DNA from: a virus
Taxonomy: Duplodnaviria; Heunggongvirae; Uroviricota; Caudoviricetes
DNA length: 10,882 nt
Virus record (IMG/VR): IMGVR_UViG_2681813320_000023
Direction: 5' to 3' (one strand)
In this document: positions 6,903-10,882 of the stretch, one piece after another
Layout of the letters: every line of letters starts with the position of its first letter
Position numbering within the stretch: the stretch's first letter is position 1
Translations under genes and position numbers: made by a program
The notes under the pieces: model-generated
The model's input: only the letters and a program-made list of their open reading frames with translations
Database searches by the model: none
Told to the model about the DNA's origin: nothing

Positions 6903-7109
6903 ATGGCTGAAGAGAAAAAAGGCGGTGTTTCGGTGTACATAAGCCCCGACATCGTGAAGGCGCTCAAGGAACGCCACCAGCAGAACGTAAAAGCAGGCAT
7001 TGCGGCAGGACTTGATCCGCTGGCGATGGTTGAGCCGTCAACAGGCTGGCAGGTACGCGCCTATTTACGCGCGGCGCTGGGTATGAATCAGGTTCACGGG
7101 GGTGAATAA
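6903..7109 (+). CDS. Hypothetical protein (68 aa), first gene of the head module, translationally coupled to the capsid gene
   Basis: ATG 6903 with AAGAGGA upstream. Stop TAA 7107-7109 overlaps the capsid ATG 7109 (TAATG). No recognisable family; position suggests a capsid-assembly accessory. Confidence 0.5.
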   Translation: MAEEKKGGVSVYISPDIVKALKERHQQNVKAGIAAGLDPLAMVEPSTGWQVRAYLRAALGMNQVHGGE

Positions 7110-8164
7110 TGACAGTAAAAGCAATAGCACTTAACACTAACCAGCTTTTTGCGTACCTGAATCGCGAGGATATTGCGGAATTTAAATTCAGTCCGCTGTT
7201 TACCGCGCTGTTTTTCCCGAACGTGGCGACATTCAACACACAGGACATCATGTTAGATAACCTGGATATTGAAGAAGTCACTATGTCGGCGTTTTGTTCG
7301 CCTATGGTGGGTAGCCAGGTTCAGCGCGATAAAGGGTACGAAACAAGCATTATTCGCCCTGGCTACATGAAGCCAAAACACGAAATCGATCCATTAAAAA
7401 CAATAATGCGCATGGCTGGAGAAGATCCAGCACAGCTTAACGACCCTACCTACCGCCGTATGCGCCTGATTACTGGCAACATGCGCCGCCAGATAAACGC
7501 CATTAAAGCGCGCGTGGAATGGCTGGCGGTGAATGCGATAACGACCGGAAAAAACATCATTGAGGGCGAAGGCATAGAACGCTATGAAATCGACTGGAAG
7601 ATCCCAAGTAAAAATATCGCCAGACAGGGACATGGCAAAAAGTGGTCAGAGGCAGATAAGGAAACACACGATCCAATCTATGACATCGAGCTTTATGCTG
7701 ATCAGGCTGGTTGCCCCGCAAACGTCATGATTATGGGCGCTGAGGTATGGCGAACGTTACGCAGCTTTAAAAAATTCCGTGAGCTGTACGATCTTTCCCG
7801 TGGTTCAGAGTCCGCCGCAGAGCTGGCCTGTAAAAACCTGGGCGAAGTGGTGAGCTTTAAAGGCTATCTGGGCGATATTGCCCTTATCGTCTATTCCGGC
7901 AAATACGCCGACAGCGACGGCACAGAAAAATATTTCCTTGAGCCTGATTTGCTTGTCCTGGGCAACACCAACAATAAAGGGCTGGTGGCCTATGGTGCGA
8001 TTATGGATCAGGACGCAGTAAGAACGGGGGCAACGCAAAACATGTACTACCCGAAAAACTGGATTGAGGACGGAGATCCGGCGATTGAGTACGTGCAGAC
8101 GCACAGCGCACCGCAGCCGGTTCCGGCAGATATTCGCAAATTTGTTACTGTCAAAATTGATTAA
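7109..8164 (+). CDS. Major capsid protein, phage lambda gpE-like (351 aa)
   Basis: Colinear similarity to lambda gpE along the whole length, from memory: EFKFSPLFTALFF vs KFKFDPLFLRLFF; PGYMKPKHEIDP vs PGYVKPKHEVNP; EDPAQLNDPTYRRMRLI vs EDPQNLADPAYRRRRII; GDIALIVYSGKY vs GDVAIVVYSGQY; YYPKNWIEDGDPAIEY vs RYPKNWVTTGDPAREF. RBS GGGGGTG upstream, stop TAA 8162-8164. Confidence 0.85.
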   Translation: MTVKAIALNTNQLFAYLNREDIAEFKFSPLFTALFFPNVATFNTQDIMLDNLDIEEVTMSAFCSPMVGSQVQRDKGYETSIIRPGYMKPKHEIDPLKTIMRMAGEDPAQLNDPTYRRMRLITGNMRRQINAIKARVEWLAVNAITTGKNIIEGEGIERYEIDWKIPSKNIARQGHGKKWSEADKETHDPIYDIELYADQAGCPANVMIMGAEVWRTLRSFKKFRELYDLSRGSESAAELACKNLGEVVSFKGYLGDIALIVYSGKYADSDGTEKYFLEPDLLVLGNTNNKGLVAYGAIMDQDAVRTGATQNMYYPKNWIEDGDPAIEYVQTHSAPQPVPADIRKFVTVKID

Positions 8165-8175
8165 CGGGGGATTCT

Positions 8176-8511
8176 ATGGACACTCCATACATTGAGTTAT
8201 TTGCAGGCAGTCAGCAGGTCGCCACGACGCTGGTACATTTTGCCGCTGATGCTGGCGTTATCCAGGAATTTACCCCGCTGATGCTGGCGGACAATGGCGA
8301 GTTTAAGCCGTGGGATGGTCAGGAATCTGGCAAGGCTGTTTATCTGACTTCGTACCCCGTGGACACGTCAAAGCAGAAATCAGCACAGTGTTACAAGACG
8401 GGGATATTTAATATCGCCGCCGTAAACTGGCCTGAGAGCGCCGACACTGACGCGAAAAAATGCGCCGCCTTTGCGGGTTCTGGCGTATCCGTTCAGCCGC
8501 TGGCGCGATAA
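8176..8511 (+). CDS. Head decoration protein, phage lambda gpD-like (111 aa)
   Basis: C-terminal half matches lambda gpD from memory: TPLMLADNGEFKPWDG vs TPLMLDTSSRKLVAWDG; YKTGIFNIAAVNWPESADTDAKKCAAFAGSGVSVQ vs [46 protein letters not shown] upstream of ATG 8176. Confidence 0.8.
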   Translation: MDTPYIELFAGSQQVATTLVHFAADAGVIQEFTPLMLADNGEFKPWDGQESGKAVYLTSYPVDTSKQKSAQCYKTGIFNIAAVNWPESADTDAKKCAAFAGSGVSVQPLAR

Positions 8512-8523
8512 GCAGGGGAAACG

Positions 8524-8937
8524 ATGGCAACGAATGAAAGCATCATGGCGCTACCGCTGGCGAGTAAATTTAAAGCAGAAGCGCGGGCAATGGCTGACAG
8601 AGGTTTATCAACCTACGAGGCCGTATATCAACTCAACAAACTGGAAGAACAGGACAAGCCGCGCGCTGATGCGATTATGGCGCTTCATGAACATAACGAC
8701 TATCAGCCGCTGTTACGTGCAATGGCAAACGTGCCATGTATTAGCGTCGATAATGCTCGTGAAATCCTGAACATGACCATAGAGCAGGAGCGCCCAAAGG
8801 TTGCACCAGAGCTTACCGCAGCCTTTGAAAACTTTATGGACATGCACAGCCCGCAAGCCGTATCAGCTGGCATGGCGTACGATGGCAGAAACCAGGGCGA
8901 TGACGGCGACATCGATCGCATGCTGAAAACCATCTGA
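8524..8937 (+). CDS. Hypothetical acidic protein (137 aa), last gene of the head module
   Basis: RBS AGGGG 5 nt upstream of ATG 8524. Stop TGA 8935-8937 followed directly by a terminator and the cos site. No recognisable family. Confidence 0.55.
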   Translation: MATNESIMALPLASKFKAEARAMADRGLSTYEAVYQLNKLEEQDKPRADAIMALHEHNDYQPLLRAMANVPCISVDNAREILNMTIEQERPKVAPELTAAFENFMDMHSPQAVSAGMAYDGRNQGDDGDIDRMLKTI

Positions 8938-8943
8938 GACAAG

Positions 8944-8967
8944 GCCGGAGAAATCCGGCTTTTTTTT
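8944..8967 (+). terminator. Rho-independent terminator (GCCGGA-GAAA-TCCGGC + T8), near-identical to the hairpin at 6670-6691
   Basis: Perfect 6-bp stem with GAAA loop and eight T, 7 bp after the stop of ORF 8524..8937. Confidence 0.6.
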
Positions 8968-9060
8968 ACGGGTCCTTTCCGGCATATGGACCCGTTACGG
9001 GGCGGCGACCTCGCGGTTTTTCGCTATTTATGAGCCTTTTCAGGGGGGTGGTGGTGGTTT
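8968..9060 (+). other. Lambda-type cos site: cosQ-like and right-end-like sequence (8968-8999), cosN 12-nt cohesive-end sequence GGGCGGCGACCT (9000-9011), followed by a diverged cosB-like region
   Basis: ACGGGTCCTTTCCGG...GTTACG | GGGCGGCGACCTCGCGG(T)TTTTCGCTATTTATGA matches the remembered lambda genome ends almost base for base. Sequence from about 9035 to the TerS start differs from lambda cosB. Confidence 0.75.
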
Positions 9061-9144
9061 TGTTGTTTGCTCTATCTTTATGAATGAAAAGGGAAAGATG
9101 CAAACAATACACCAACCTGAAGCAGTAATTAAGTTGGTGTATTA

Positions 9145-9687
9145 ATGAAATCGCACCTGATGAACAAAAAAAACATGGCGAAAAGCTGCCGTGTAAGTGC
9201 GACAGCGTTCGACAAGTGGGGAGTGACTCCCGTTGAACGTAAAGGCCGTGAGGCGTTTTACGATGTTGCCAGCGTGATAGACAATAGGGTTAACAATGCA
9301 ATTAGCCAGCTTACAAACGACAAAGGCGATATTGATGATGATGAACTCTTACGAGTCAGGATCAGATTACTGACAGCACAGGCGGAGGCGCAGGAACTTA
9401 AAAACGAGCGCGATCGCGGTGACGTGATCGATACTGAGTTTTGCCTGTACGCGCTTTCAAAGCTGGCGAGTCAGATTTCATCAATCATGGACAGCCTCCC
9501 GCTTACTATGCAAAGGAGCTTCCCACAGATTACCCCCGCCATGCTGGATAGGCTTAAAAGGGAAGTGGTTAAAGCCTGTAATGCCAGTGCCAGAGTTGCC
9601 GACAACCTCCCACAGATACTGGCTGATTACTTGAAAGAAACAACCGGAAACGTACCGGAAAAGTTGCAGCCGAATAAAGATAAGTAA
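9145..9687 (+). CDS. Terminase small subunit, lambda Nu1-like (180 aa as tracked; possibly 175 aa from the MNKK start at 9160)
   Basis: C-terminal half aligns strongly to lambda Nu1 from memory: RIRLLTAQAEAQELKNERDRGDVIDTEFCLYALSKLASQISSIMDSLPLTMQRSFPQI vs RLTRAQADAQELKNARDSAEVVETAFCTFVLSRIAGEIASILDGLPLSVQRRFPEL. N-terminus MNKKNMAK... is more weakly similar to Nu1 MEVNKKQLAD.... Located about 135-150 bp downstream of cosN, as in lambda. Confidence 0.8.
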   Translation: MKSHLMNKKNMAKSCRVSATAFDKWGVTPVERKGREAFYDVASVIDNRVNNAISQLTNDKGDIDDDELLRVRIRLLTAQAEAQELKNERDRGDVIDTEFCLYALSKLASQISSIMDSLPLTMQRSFPQITPAMLDRLKREVVKACNASARVADNLPQILADYLKETTGNVPEKLQPNKDK

Positions 9688-9698
9688 CGTAGTACGCT

Positions 9699-9980
9699 AT
9701 GACTGAATCCGAAATACTGCGATTAATCCGCCGCGTCTCTGGAATCAGCCAGCAGGCTGACGAACAGACCACGCAGCCGGACAGCGTGACAGCCGAAAAC
9801 TATGCGCGTGTTGTTGCTGAGGTGATGCGCCGTGATGGTATAGAACTTAATGGCGTGGATATGCGCAACATACGAACCAGAGTTCTTGAGTTGCTGGCCT
9901 ACCGTCGCCGCGTGGAGATGTATCGGGAGAAGGAGAAAATAACGTACCACTGGAAGAAGCCGGAGCGGTTGCGGCGGTAA
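9699..9980 (+). CDS. Hypothetical protein (93 aa) downstream of the TerS-like gene
   Basis: ORF begins 12 bp after the TerS stop, with no strong RBS. Arg-rich, helix-like sequence. No recognisable family. Confidence 0.4.
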   Translation: MTESEILRLIRRVSGISQQADEQTTQPDSVTAENYARVVAEVMRRDGIELNGVDMRNIRTRVLELLAYRRRVEMYREKEKITYHWKKPERLRR

Positions 9981-10275
9981 CTGGTTGATATTCCCGACGG
10001 ACCAAAAATGGGTGGCTACATCCCTCGCTTCTGAGGACTGTTAACAAGCTGCCTGAAAGACAGTCACAAACTACGAAATTTTCGCAGTTTAATTAATGAT
10101 CAGCTTAATCGCTAACCCGCTGATATTTTCGGAAACCTCAATTTGAGGAAGTCGGCGCGGTAACTCGCTGAACTTTAAGCAAAGCGCAAAATTGCGCTTG
10201 CTGAATAATCATTATGATTACGCAGATGATTAAGGAATGACCGAAGGCGGAAATTCGCCTGTGGTTAATGGGGGA

Positions 10276-10538
10276 GTTGCAGATCTGCAACTCGACCATG
10301 AAACTACGGAAACTACCCGTAGTTTGGGTAGTAAGAGTAACACCCAGATTTTGGGTCTTACTCGTGATACCCAAATTTGGGGTATCAGTGGCAACCATAA
10401 CGACTTTCGTTACGGTTGATGCTTTTACCCCATTGGGGGAAAGGTATTACGATAATCATAACACCTACCGAACAGGTAAAGCCCACCAGCCTGATTAACG
10501 TTTAACCGGAAAAAAATTCCGGTAGGTGGGGATCCCCA
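10276..10538. repeat. Cluster of distinct palindromes and hairpins in non-coding DNA
   Basis: GTTGCAGATCTGCAAC (10276-10291, perfect 16 bp); CTACCC-7 nt-GGGTAG (10313-10331); nested hairpin AGTAAGA..ACCCA-gattt-TGGGT..TCTTACT (10330-10362); GATACCCAAATTTGGGGTATC (10366-10386); AACCATAACG-actttcgt/CGTTACGGTT (10393-10417); CCCCATTGGGG (10428-10438); ACCGGAA-aaaaa-TTCCGGT (10505-10523); TGGGGATCCCCA (10527-10538). Confidence 0.4.
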
Positions 10539-10649
10539 TATCGACATTAACGCCCCTCATGAATTGGTGCGCTTCCCCCTGGAAAGATGATCCGCCTGTA
10601 TATTTCTTGTGTCTATTTGTTCCACGTTGTTTCATACAGTGCACCGAAC

Positions 10650-10671
10650 GGTGTAGTCACTGGTGTAGTCA
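10650..10671. repeat. Tandem direct repeat GGTGTAGTCA x2 (period 12) near the right junction
   Basis: ggtgtagtca-ct-ggtgtagtca followed by TTTTG. Its position about 75 bp inside the presumed junction makes integrase or excisionase arm-type sites plausible. Confidence 0.3.
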
Positions 10672-10717
10672 TTTTGCGATTTTTGGCACTTTTTGTGGTG
10701 AAAATTATTTAATTAAA

Positions 10718-10882
10718 TCAACGTGTTATGTGAAATAAGTTATATATAACAGCAATAAATAATGCGAGAATAAACGGCACGATGATCTCGGCGGCAAAAC
10801 GGATACCGCAGAGAATAATGACCAGCATTCCCAACATAATGACGATTTTTAGGCCATTGAGCGTGATGATCGGCTTTGCCAT
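10718..10882 (-). pseudogene. tqsA: 5' fragment of a host AI-2E-family transporter gene (TqsA-like N-terminus), in-frame fusion ending in island-derived sequence (54 codons, start codon at window end)
   Basis: Minus-strand translation from the ATG at 10882-10880: [45 protein letters not shown], then IYNLFHITR and stop (TGA 10720-10718). The first ~45 residues match the remembered N-terminus of E. coli TqsA/YdgG; similarity is lost abruptly, as expected at an insertion junction. Not searched. Confidence 0.4.

Follow-up and report, generated by a model that had tools for sequence, protein, structure and literature searches.

The right end of a phage satellite inserted in the Escherichia coli gene tqsA carries a non-coding arm whose left part contains short tandem units, each of which joins a consensus site for the integration host factor (IHF) to a palindrome. 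These units are homologous to segments from inside the roi and rha genes of lambdoid helper phages. The window, which is the whole stretch of 10,882 nucleotides that was analysed (IMG/VR record IMGVR_UViG_2681813320_000023), holds this satellite, an element of about 10.75 kb of the phage-inducible chromosomal island (PICI) type of lambdoid phages. The arm begins at the end of orf93, the last gene of the late/packaging operon. A preliminary description of the sequence had singled it out as a palindrome-dense non-coding tract. We tentatively read the tract as the right arm of the satellite, in which the units would be binding modules for IHF and a Roi/Rha-type protein; this explanation is the best fitting and still falls a little short of probable. 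A role of the array as a sink or sensor, directed at the antirepressor-type regulators of helpers, is less likely than the binding itself.

Positions 9975-10443 form a patchwork, the first part of which is made of tandem units of about 48 bp. The start of each unit, (G/C)(G/C)TAAC-N3-YTGATWTT, fits the IHF consensus (WATCARNNNNTTR, read here as YAANNNNYTGATW), and a palindrome follows. The first unit overlaps the stop codon of orf93. The set that was compared comprises 69 distinct units drawn from 102 tracts of relatives' loci, and all of these units share YAAC-N3-YTGATWTT. The palindrome is centred 21-23 nt after YTGAT in 64 of the 69 units, and 21.5-22.5 nt after the Y of YTGAT in 63. Among the 64 units with this spacing, 51 match the full consensus YAANNNNYTGATW. 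The dyad-symmetric element of the module stands 17 bp from the IHF consensus, while the letters of the palindrome vary widely among units (CCTCAA/TTGAGG, CCCCCA/TGGGGG, CCTGCA/TGCAGG, CAGCC/GGCTG, AACGCAA/TTGCGTT, AAGTGCA/TGCACTT, TTCGCC/GGCGAA). A gapless alignment of 21 non-coding units has invariant columns at exactly the IHF consensus positions, TAA....TGAT. The module is tandemly repeated one to six times per satellite, with several allelic versions side by side.

Covariation analysis across homologous islands, a check proposed in the preliminary description, revealed that the unit dyad is kept by compensatory change. In six of its seven pairs both members change, and compensatory cells number 31 compared with 10.5 +/- 2.3 in shuffles; none of the 500 shuffles reached 31. 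Covariation scores 0.535 in the units, while shuffles give 0.128 and slid controls at most 0.14. A strand test on the mismatches flanking the unit dyads counted 15 G.T (G.U) and 10 A.C, that is, no bias, and the complementarity runs to the centre, with 'loops' of 1-2 nt. Because of the absent strand bias and the complementarity to the centre, duplex DNA is a better fit for the unit dyads than a hairpin in RNA. Certain dyads of the satellites surpass the coding copy in symmetry, such as 10+10 bp versus 9 bp with G.T in HK639.

The relation to phage genes is visible at short range. A blastn search of the whole tract against phages gave no match at E<=1e-5, and the homology emerged only with short queries at relaxed E-values. 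Scanning viral contigs for the IHF motif of the units returned more than 120 loci. Over all loci that were collected, the motif occurs 162 times: 94 occurrences lie inside long open reading frames (ORFs) of the Roi/Rha type on the opposite strand, 50 are downstream of orf93, and 18 are elsewhere. The products of the motif-bearing ORFs, for example MTSIEIAELVGKRHDNVKRTIETLAKNGVIRLPQIEDCGRINGLGL..., have Phage_pRha and ANT/KilAC domains. The ORFs belong to the nin region of lambdoid prophages and are named roi, rha or anti-repressor in GenBank. In these genes, the IHF consensus encodes ...INGLG... or ...YID..., and the dyad falls on four codons upstream (PQIE, PPMG, PPME or RNFA). Since the dyad stays palindromic while the amino acids change, it is a nucleic-acid element embedded in the roi/rha ORF. 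Pairs of a palindrome and an IHF consensus 17 bp apart in roi/rha are seen, for example, at loci L113 (3201-3923), L306 (363-923) and L226-L305.

The units of the window can be assigned to such genes one by one. U1 (9975-10020) contains a putative IHF site that matches the full consensus, TAACTGGTTGATA (9978-9990), and a decayed dyad, GGACCAAAAATGGGT (9999-10013), at the offset of which relatives have GGCCCAaaaaTGGGTT. The dyad ACTACGAAATTTTCGCAGT (10070-10088) has one mismatch in the window and is perfect in a relative (L007); it matches 23 of 24 nt of a Salmonella phage ST65 gene annotated as 'putative DNA-binding protein', a weak hit (E 0.9). U2 (10110-10155) is antisense to a roi segment. 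It consists of a putative IHF-type site, TAACCCGCTGATA (10113-10125), which fits the consensus with R=G, and the dyad CCTCAA-t-TTGAGG (10136-10148). U2 shares 32 of 35 nt (E 6e-5) with roi/anti-repressor genes of HK620, H-19B, CUS-3 and many Shiga-toxin (Stx) phages, always on the opposite strand, and the HK022-type roi allele has a 22-nt dyad-plus-spacer sequence identical to that of U2. U3 (10158-10205), antisense to a rha segment, combines a decayed IHF motif, TAACTCGCTGAAC (10161-10173), with a perfect 8+8 dyad, AAGCGCAA-aa-TTGCGCTT (10182-10199). It matches Rha-family regulator genes over 21 of 21 nt and corresponds to a band of 92 phage records with at least 99% identity, mostly of Stx2a phages. 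The common type-2 unit, which is related to U3, matches the rha gene of HK639 over 19 of 19 nt.

Positions 10206-10268 hold the dyad TAATCAT-t-ATGATTA (10206-10220), followed by a U4-like unit that ends at 10268 and has the dyad AGGCGGAAATTCGCCT (10245-10260); this segment has no phage match. Further to the right, at 10393-10443, the dyad AACCATAACGA-ctt-TCGTTACGGTT is followed by TTGATG and by a second dyad, CTTTTACCCCA-t-TGGGGGAAAG (10422-10443), which covaries among relatives. The hairpin at 10393-10417 shares 27 of 32 nt with a segment of Stx-phage ant (antirepressor) genes, in 933W and most of 263 phage records. Units of another relative (L008) match an anti-repressor gene in 46 of 49 nt (E 2e-11), roi genes in 45 of 49 nt and another roi allele in about 36 of 41 nt. 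Judged by these alignments, the sequence from 9975 to about 10443 clearly appears to consist of short fragments from inside helper antirepressor-type genes, roi and rha, and the match at 10393-10417 weakly points to ant as a further source.

Sites of this kind have a precedent in phage biology. Roi of phage HK022 reportedly binds a site within its own gene near an IHF site, with IHF stabilizing the complex (Clerget and Boccard, 1996). Henthorn and Friedman are reported to have noted IHF consensus sites in rha in 1995. A combination of IHF site and operator inside roi is thus reported for HK022. Rha of phi80 and P22 is described as detrimental to lytic growth without IHF (PMC4936722). The covarying palindrome beside an IHF consensus inside the roi/rha coding sequence bears on this old phenotype linking Rha/Roi and IHF. 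The tract units share with the roi-internal site of HK022, and with the IHF-regulated rha genes of phi80 and P22, the homologous internal segment of IHF consensus, fixed spacer and dyad. They differ in that the satellite module lies outside any gene, is repeated in tandem one to six times with several alleles side by side, and is separated from the rest of roi/rha.

The proposed mechanism follows from this arrangement. Only one gene-internal module has been retained from the helper antirepressor-type genes, and in the satellite it is multiplied in tandem. Host IHF would bend each unit, and a helper-encoded Roi/Rha-type dimer would bind the adjacent dyad. Since each unit would bind IHF and such a dimer, the replicating satellite would display many sites with several allelic specificities. 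During the helper lytic cycle, these sites may act as a sink or sensor for helper antirepressor-type regulators. A broader and more doubtful idea is that the satellite keeps a heritable multi-allelic library of helper antirepressor control sites, one module per roi/rha/ant allele, refreshed by recombination. Such a library might detect or neutralize many lambdoid helpers, whether its modules work together with IHF as DNA sensors or decoys or are transcribed into antisense RNA.

Silencing by an array of antisense RNAs is the most serious competitor, and we consider it rather unlikely. Late transcripts would read through orf93, and their 3' untranslated region (UTR), with several stretches of 20-50 nt complementary to the helper roi, rha and ant mRNAs, would silence these genes in several helper alleles. 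Every unit, as well as the ant-like fragment, is antisense to a phage gene and co-directional with the late operon. The overlap of the first unit with the orf93 stop codon and the lack of a convincing terminator after orf93 favour read-through, and stretches of 19-49 nt that are exactly or almost exactly complementary amply suffice for antisense pairing. Just downstream, a block that we call module B bears + strand G.U substitutions, and the island already uses a C4-type antisense RNA. However, the unit dyads have no + strand G.U bias, and several units are only about 80% identical to phage alleles. The IHF consensus and perfect dyads are kept even where the rest of the unit has diverged from any known phage allele, although an antisense role needs neither.

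Antirepressor genes are classic targets of antisense control, which is known from sar of P22 and C4 of P1. The likeness of the tract to P22 sar/ant and P1/P7 C4/icd-ant lies in the antirepressor targets, in antisense fragments co-directional with a transcribed operon and in the presence of a C4 RNA in the island. In contrast, sar and C4 are dedicated small RNAs from the target's own phage, whereas here a satellite 3' UTR would target several helper alleles.

Several points weigh against the binding of IHF and a Roi/Rha-type protein. Binding of any protein to the units is a prediction, for which the reported binding of Roi within its own gene beside an IHF site serves as a lead. Since all units share one orientation, antisense to phage genes, and no terminator stands between orf93 and the units, the data fit antisense RNA equally well. 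Half-sites are 1 to 5 nt apart, depending on the unit, a variation that one dimer family would not readily accommodate. With E=7 per hit, the resemblance to ant is weak on its own; it lies on the opposite strand in all listed records but one. Much of the unit diversity may mirror phage alleles gained by recombination, and conservation among satellites could therefore partly reflect recent transfer. Finally, module B and positions 10444-10615, which have no meaningful phage homologue, are unexplained by a model of binding sites.

Another explanation, which we regard as improbable, is that the tract is debris in a cargo slot. In this case, the units would have no function; they would be the scars that illegitimate or Red-type recombination of satellite and helper has repeatedly left at recombinogenic palindromes, amplified afterwards by slippage. 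Among relatives, the tract is indeed a mosaic of modules with sharp borders and a variable number of units, and full tracts range from 464 to 1147 bp. Some units of the window are decayed, as in the U1 dyad and the U3 IHF motif, and module B has suffered 9-nt slippage deletions. Moreover, in relative L110 (E. coli AHB30), a diverged module B is followed by a gene of the abortive-infection (Abi) family (1746-2507), encoded on the opposite strand; because of this gene, the position of the tract doubles as a cargo or defence slot. Debris does not account for the choice of fragments: only antirepressor-type genes are represented, and only one segment of about 48 bp of each. Nor does it account for the compensatory dyad changes and the invariant IHF positions in non-coding copies, or for an arrangement that persists in about 1500 E. 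coli genomes and in two packaging types of satellites. The suggestion in the preliminary description that the tract might be remnants of a cargo locus thus agrees with its position and fails on its content, since the fragments come from helper-phage genes and not from cargo.

The two packaging types are illustrated by a copy of the tract in E. coli O157:H7. A 100%-identical copy closes a capsid-forming PICI (cf-PICI) that occupies the same site in tqsA; the packaging module ahead of the copy is of quite another kind, the HK97 type. The element looks like the cf-PICI EcCIEDL933 (bioRxiv 10.1101/2022.09.08.507074) and may be identical with it. In view of this identical copy after a different packaging module, orf93 and the tract represent a right-end module common to satellites with different capsid genes and integration sites. 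orf93 itself, which always precedes the tract, occurs in 1567 of the 5426 complete genomes of E. coli.

Module B (10269-10391, + strand) is a sharply bounded block of 123 bp with four hairpins: H1 (10274-10293), H2 (10301-10325), H3 (10335-10363) and H4 (10365-10387). Of the 5426 complete genomes of E. coli, 706 carry the block; most copies are 90-95% identical, and the flanks are unrelated. Compared with phages, it has no meaningful match, only a chance-level one (E=7) in Yersinia phage hypothetical genes. Substitutions are found mainly in loops. Two independent slippage deletions of 9 nt both keep the AAACTAC/GTAGTTT stem, and a variant of 75% identity retains H1, H2 and H4 but not H3. The one-sided changes comprise 18 + strand G.U cells versus 6 A.C cells, and one compensatory pair changes from C-G to U-A by way of U.G intermediates, which also occur. 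These changes hint weakly that module B may be a + strand RNA in the 3' UTR of the late operon, in a block with too little variation for a real test. In three loci (L018, L043 and L064), two copies of module B lie about 434 nt apart, and the second copy in L018 loses homology about 90 nt in.

The hairpins could alternatively form a structured RNA, terminator or insulator that stabilizes the 3' end of the late mRNA, stops late transcription before attP and int, or blocks read-in from tqsA; the likeness to roi/rha would then be incidental. The strong folding on both strands (z-scores of -7.9 on the + strand and -9.8 on the - strand, for module B/tract), the conservation of module B with changes mostly in loops, and the location of the tract between the late operon and int in the circular form are in line with this. 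In both tract classes, a hairpin with what look by eye like U-rich tails also comes after module B. Against it, an intrinsic-terminator scan found two sites where 1.4 are expected, neither of them convincing. With centres of 1-2 nt and stems of 5-6 bp, the unit palindromes would make hairpins too weak for RNA; they also lack a strand bias, and the invariant IHF consensus would be left unexplained. A permissive Rfam scan of 9900-10882 gave best E-values of 3-5.6, all far below gathering scores, so the Rfam check proposed earlier found no family in the tract at either threshold. We hold this function to be quite improbable. The structured non-coding RNA of the preliminary description retains the weak + strand G.U signal of module B, and of module B only.

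A satellite-specific spacer (10444-10615) contains the dyads ACCGGAA-A5-TTCCGGT (10505-10523) and TGGGGATCCCCA (10527-10538). The spacer is conserved in satellites at other integration sites. Comparison of the right third of the tract with phages gave only chance matches. One promoter-like site in the spacer is on the - strand (10615->10587). An exact inverted match of 15 nt, GCCCACCAGCCTGAT, links 10481-10495 with 2029-2043, which is inside a 377-aa ORF without a Pfam family (1839-2972). The motif is conserved in the tracts of relatives, and the match could be an antisense pairing site or chance. Integrase arm-type sites are located at 10616-10671 on the + strand, where TTTGTTCCACGTTGTTTCA is followed by GGTGTAGTCA as a direct repeat. 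In a relative, the block TTTGTTCCA...CGGTGTAGTCACTGGTGTAGTCA, with its 23-nt repeat, is found again at the left end, upstream of int, and the arm repeats are conserved in islands at other att sites. A perfect IHF consensus on the - strand (10716-10728) lies between the arm block and the att core, ATAACAGCA (10746-10754).

That the whole tract is an attP arm, with sites for integrase, excisionase (AlpA) and IHF in site-specific recombination, is very improbable: the arm-type repeats, which adjoin int as identical copies, the IHF consensus and the core are confined to the last ~140 bp (10616-10754), whereas the rest of the tract is mosaic, common to satellites at different att sites and homologous to phage roi/rha genes. 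In other words, the features expected of an attP arm of a P4-family tyrosine integrase are found only in 10616-10754 and not in 9981-10615. An array of protein-binding sites had been among the options of the preliminary description. Its variant of decoy operators for helper regulators corresponds best to what we describe, with units that are copies of the IHF-plus-dyad module inside roi/rha, while its integrase, excisionase and IHF arm sites are restricted to the att end. In several viral contigs (L029, L012, L034 and similar), the tract is present without the GGTGTAGT arm repeats. L029 has a long open sequence after the tract, which may hold phage structural or terminase genes. Tracts without arm repeats suggest satellites embedded in prophages.

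The palindrome density that drew attention to the tract is far from random. Between 9981 and 10720 there are 13 perfect inverted repeats with a stem of at least 6 and a loop of at most 8, compared with 1.57 +/- 1.2 in 500 dinucleotide-preserving shuffles, none of which reached 13. With stems of at least 7, there are 8 versus 0.44. Sliding windows of 560 bp contain 0-7 inverted repeats elsewhere in the island and 12 in this stretch. The earlier view that such density is unusual for spacer DNA is borne out. Every inverted repeat that it listed is present in the sequence, including TAATCAT-T-ATGATTA, the palindrome GTTGCAGATCTGCAAC (10276-10291, part of a full palindrome of 20 nt at 10274-10293), three ACCC..GGGT hairpins within 10301-10387 and CCCCATTGGGG (10428-10438). 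Its coordinates for the first two, the U2 and U3 dyads, were about 2 nt off. The right border has to be moved. The tract was thought to end at 10540 at the right end of the island; the non-coding sequence in fact runs from 9981 to about 10745, and the island ends with the att core. A literature search for GTTGCAGATCTGCAAC found this 16-mer in no paper. Four Dam sites (GATC) are located in the tract at 10098, 10282, 10531 and 10589, two of them at the exact centres of the perfect palindromes GCAGATCTGC and GGGGATCCCC.

The tract had also been said to lack a convincing ORF, and this holds. The overlapping ORFs have 86, 76, 60, 54 aa and fewer. None has a Pfam match, and the four ORFs of at least 60 aa that were tested have no PHROG match. 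Stops occur in all six frames, and no open frame is conserved. The + strand ORF of 76 aa is interrupted by an in-frame TAA in the commonest relatives, and by indels of 1 nt and 9 nt in relatives.

Other readings were tried and rejected. A lambda-type cos is placed elsewhere, with an exact cosN at 9000-9011 and only a chance match with three mismatches inside the tract. An origin or crr of the P4 type is excluded because the TGTTCACC iterons lie at 5870-6100 and are absent from the tract, and the origin region and the tract share no 11-mer. A clustered regularly interspaced short palindromic repeat (CRISPR) array, or solitary repeats, does not agree with unit copies that are only 72-78% identical and whose palindrome itself varies. 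By eye, attC-like sites of integrons were dismissed for want of matching R'/R'' pairing and of an integron integrase, and a CsrB-like sponge because GGA motifs are not in loops. Iterons of the lambda ori type have dyads that look similar, but the units map to roi/rha and not to O genes. Sigma-54 or sigma-70 promoters within units were also considered by eye and dropped, and a promoter scan of the tract gave nothing above expectation. ARAGORN found no tRNA or transfer-messenger RNA in the tract.

Several known systems resemble the arm in part. Cis-acting sites for helper regulators are known from satellite P4, on the promoters of which Cox and Ogr of its helper P2 act. The resemblance to P4 consists of such sites for helper-encoded DNA-binding regulators, and this island also has the TGTTCACC iterons and a C4/CI-type RNA. 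The P4 sites, however, are in promoters of defined operons, whereas here they follow the last late gene, with no evident promoter, and are copies of the internal site of a helper gene. cosB of lambda (R sites and I1), attP arms and the bacterial interspersed mosaic elements (BIMEs) or repetitive IHF-binding palindromic (RIP) elements also alternate IHF consensus sites with short protein-binding or palindromic elements. They differ in that the real cos is at 9000-9011 plus flanks and arm sites occur only in 10616-10754; by eye, the palindromes of the tract are unlike the GC-rich repetitive extragenic palindrome (REP) consensus.

The papers on PICIs, cf-PICIs and EcCIMP1, as searched, do not mention the tract. 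In the PICI and satellite literature searched, we found no satellite with this module extracted from helper antirepressor genes and arrayed as several alleles at the right end. The way in which Gram-negative PICIs and cf-PICIs recognize and manipulate lambdoid helpers is understood in part: the interfaces described so far are proteins, Rpp-TerS and AlpA among them, and no helper signal is known to turn on alpA (PMC6739421, PMC11773190). The composition of the right arm suggests that the satellite may sense, soak up or silence helper regulators. If the arm does bind or silence regulators of the Roi/Rha/Ant type, it would add a cis-acting or RNA layer to the conflict between satellite and helper. 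A nucleic-acid recognition array aimed at helper regulators would be a satellite-helper interface not described so far, and it could even supply the link that is missing between helpers and the induction of Gram-negative PICIs that depends on them. Stx-phage biology would be affected too, through the influence of roi and ant on the lytic cycle. About 1500 E. coli genomes have orf93, the gene preceding the arm, among them that with the cf-PICI of O157:H7, an element already studied by experiment.

orf93 (9699-9980, + strand; 93 aa, phrog_1561) has a PHROG match of 4.7e-56. It follows the terminase genes in cf-PICIs and in satellites with a lambda-type capsid alike. The family is narrow, with 37 representatives, and the predicted product is a three-helix protein (predicted local distance difference test score of 76) whose model has no fold match in PDB. 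The C-terminus, Y-x-W-KKPERLRR (9950-9980), is nearly invariant even in homologues of 45% identity, and the codons for it extend into the start of U1, the first unit, in which the stop codon lies. One database protein (P0135) joins a module-B reading frame and the 3' half of orf93, a sign of rearranged copies.

The remainder of the island is organized as follows. A P4-family integrase is encoded at 1-1218, a primase-helicase like D5/P4-alpha at 4030-5862 and PerC at 6391-6663. The lambda-like major capsid protein gpE, the decoration protein gpD and a scaffold-like protein occupy 7109-8937, and the Nu1-like small terminase gene terS is at 9145-9687. The host tqsA 5' remnant, its first 54 codons, extends on the - strand (10882->10718). 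A C4-type antisense RNA with its target spans 3003-3207. The gathering-threshold Rfam scan of the window placed the C4 antisense RNA at 3120-3207 and its c4-a1b1 target at 3003-3052; both are on the + strand (72.6 and 46.8 bits) upstream of an Icd-like gene. Because of this arrangement, the element is a PICI-type satellite with an RNA immunity module in the style of P1/P7/P4.

Just downstream of the primase-helicase gene, at least 10 iterons, ACTGTTCACC/GGTGAACAGT, are found in both orientations at 5870-6100. They equal the P4 type I repeat TGTTCACC, and the origin and replicase of the island are therefore P4-alpha-like. Upstream of terS, the exact lambda cosN, GGGCGGCGACCT (9000-9011), is preceded by a cosQ-like sequence (8960-8999). 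The cosB region (9012-9140) is unlike that of lambda, and this divergence suggests a satellite-specific packaging that may depend on its own TerS.

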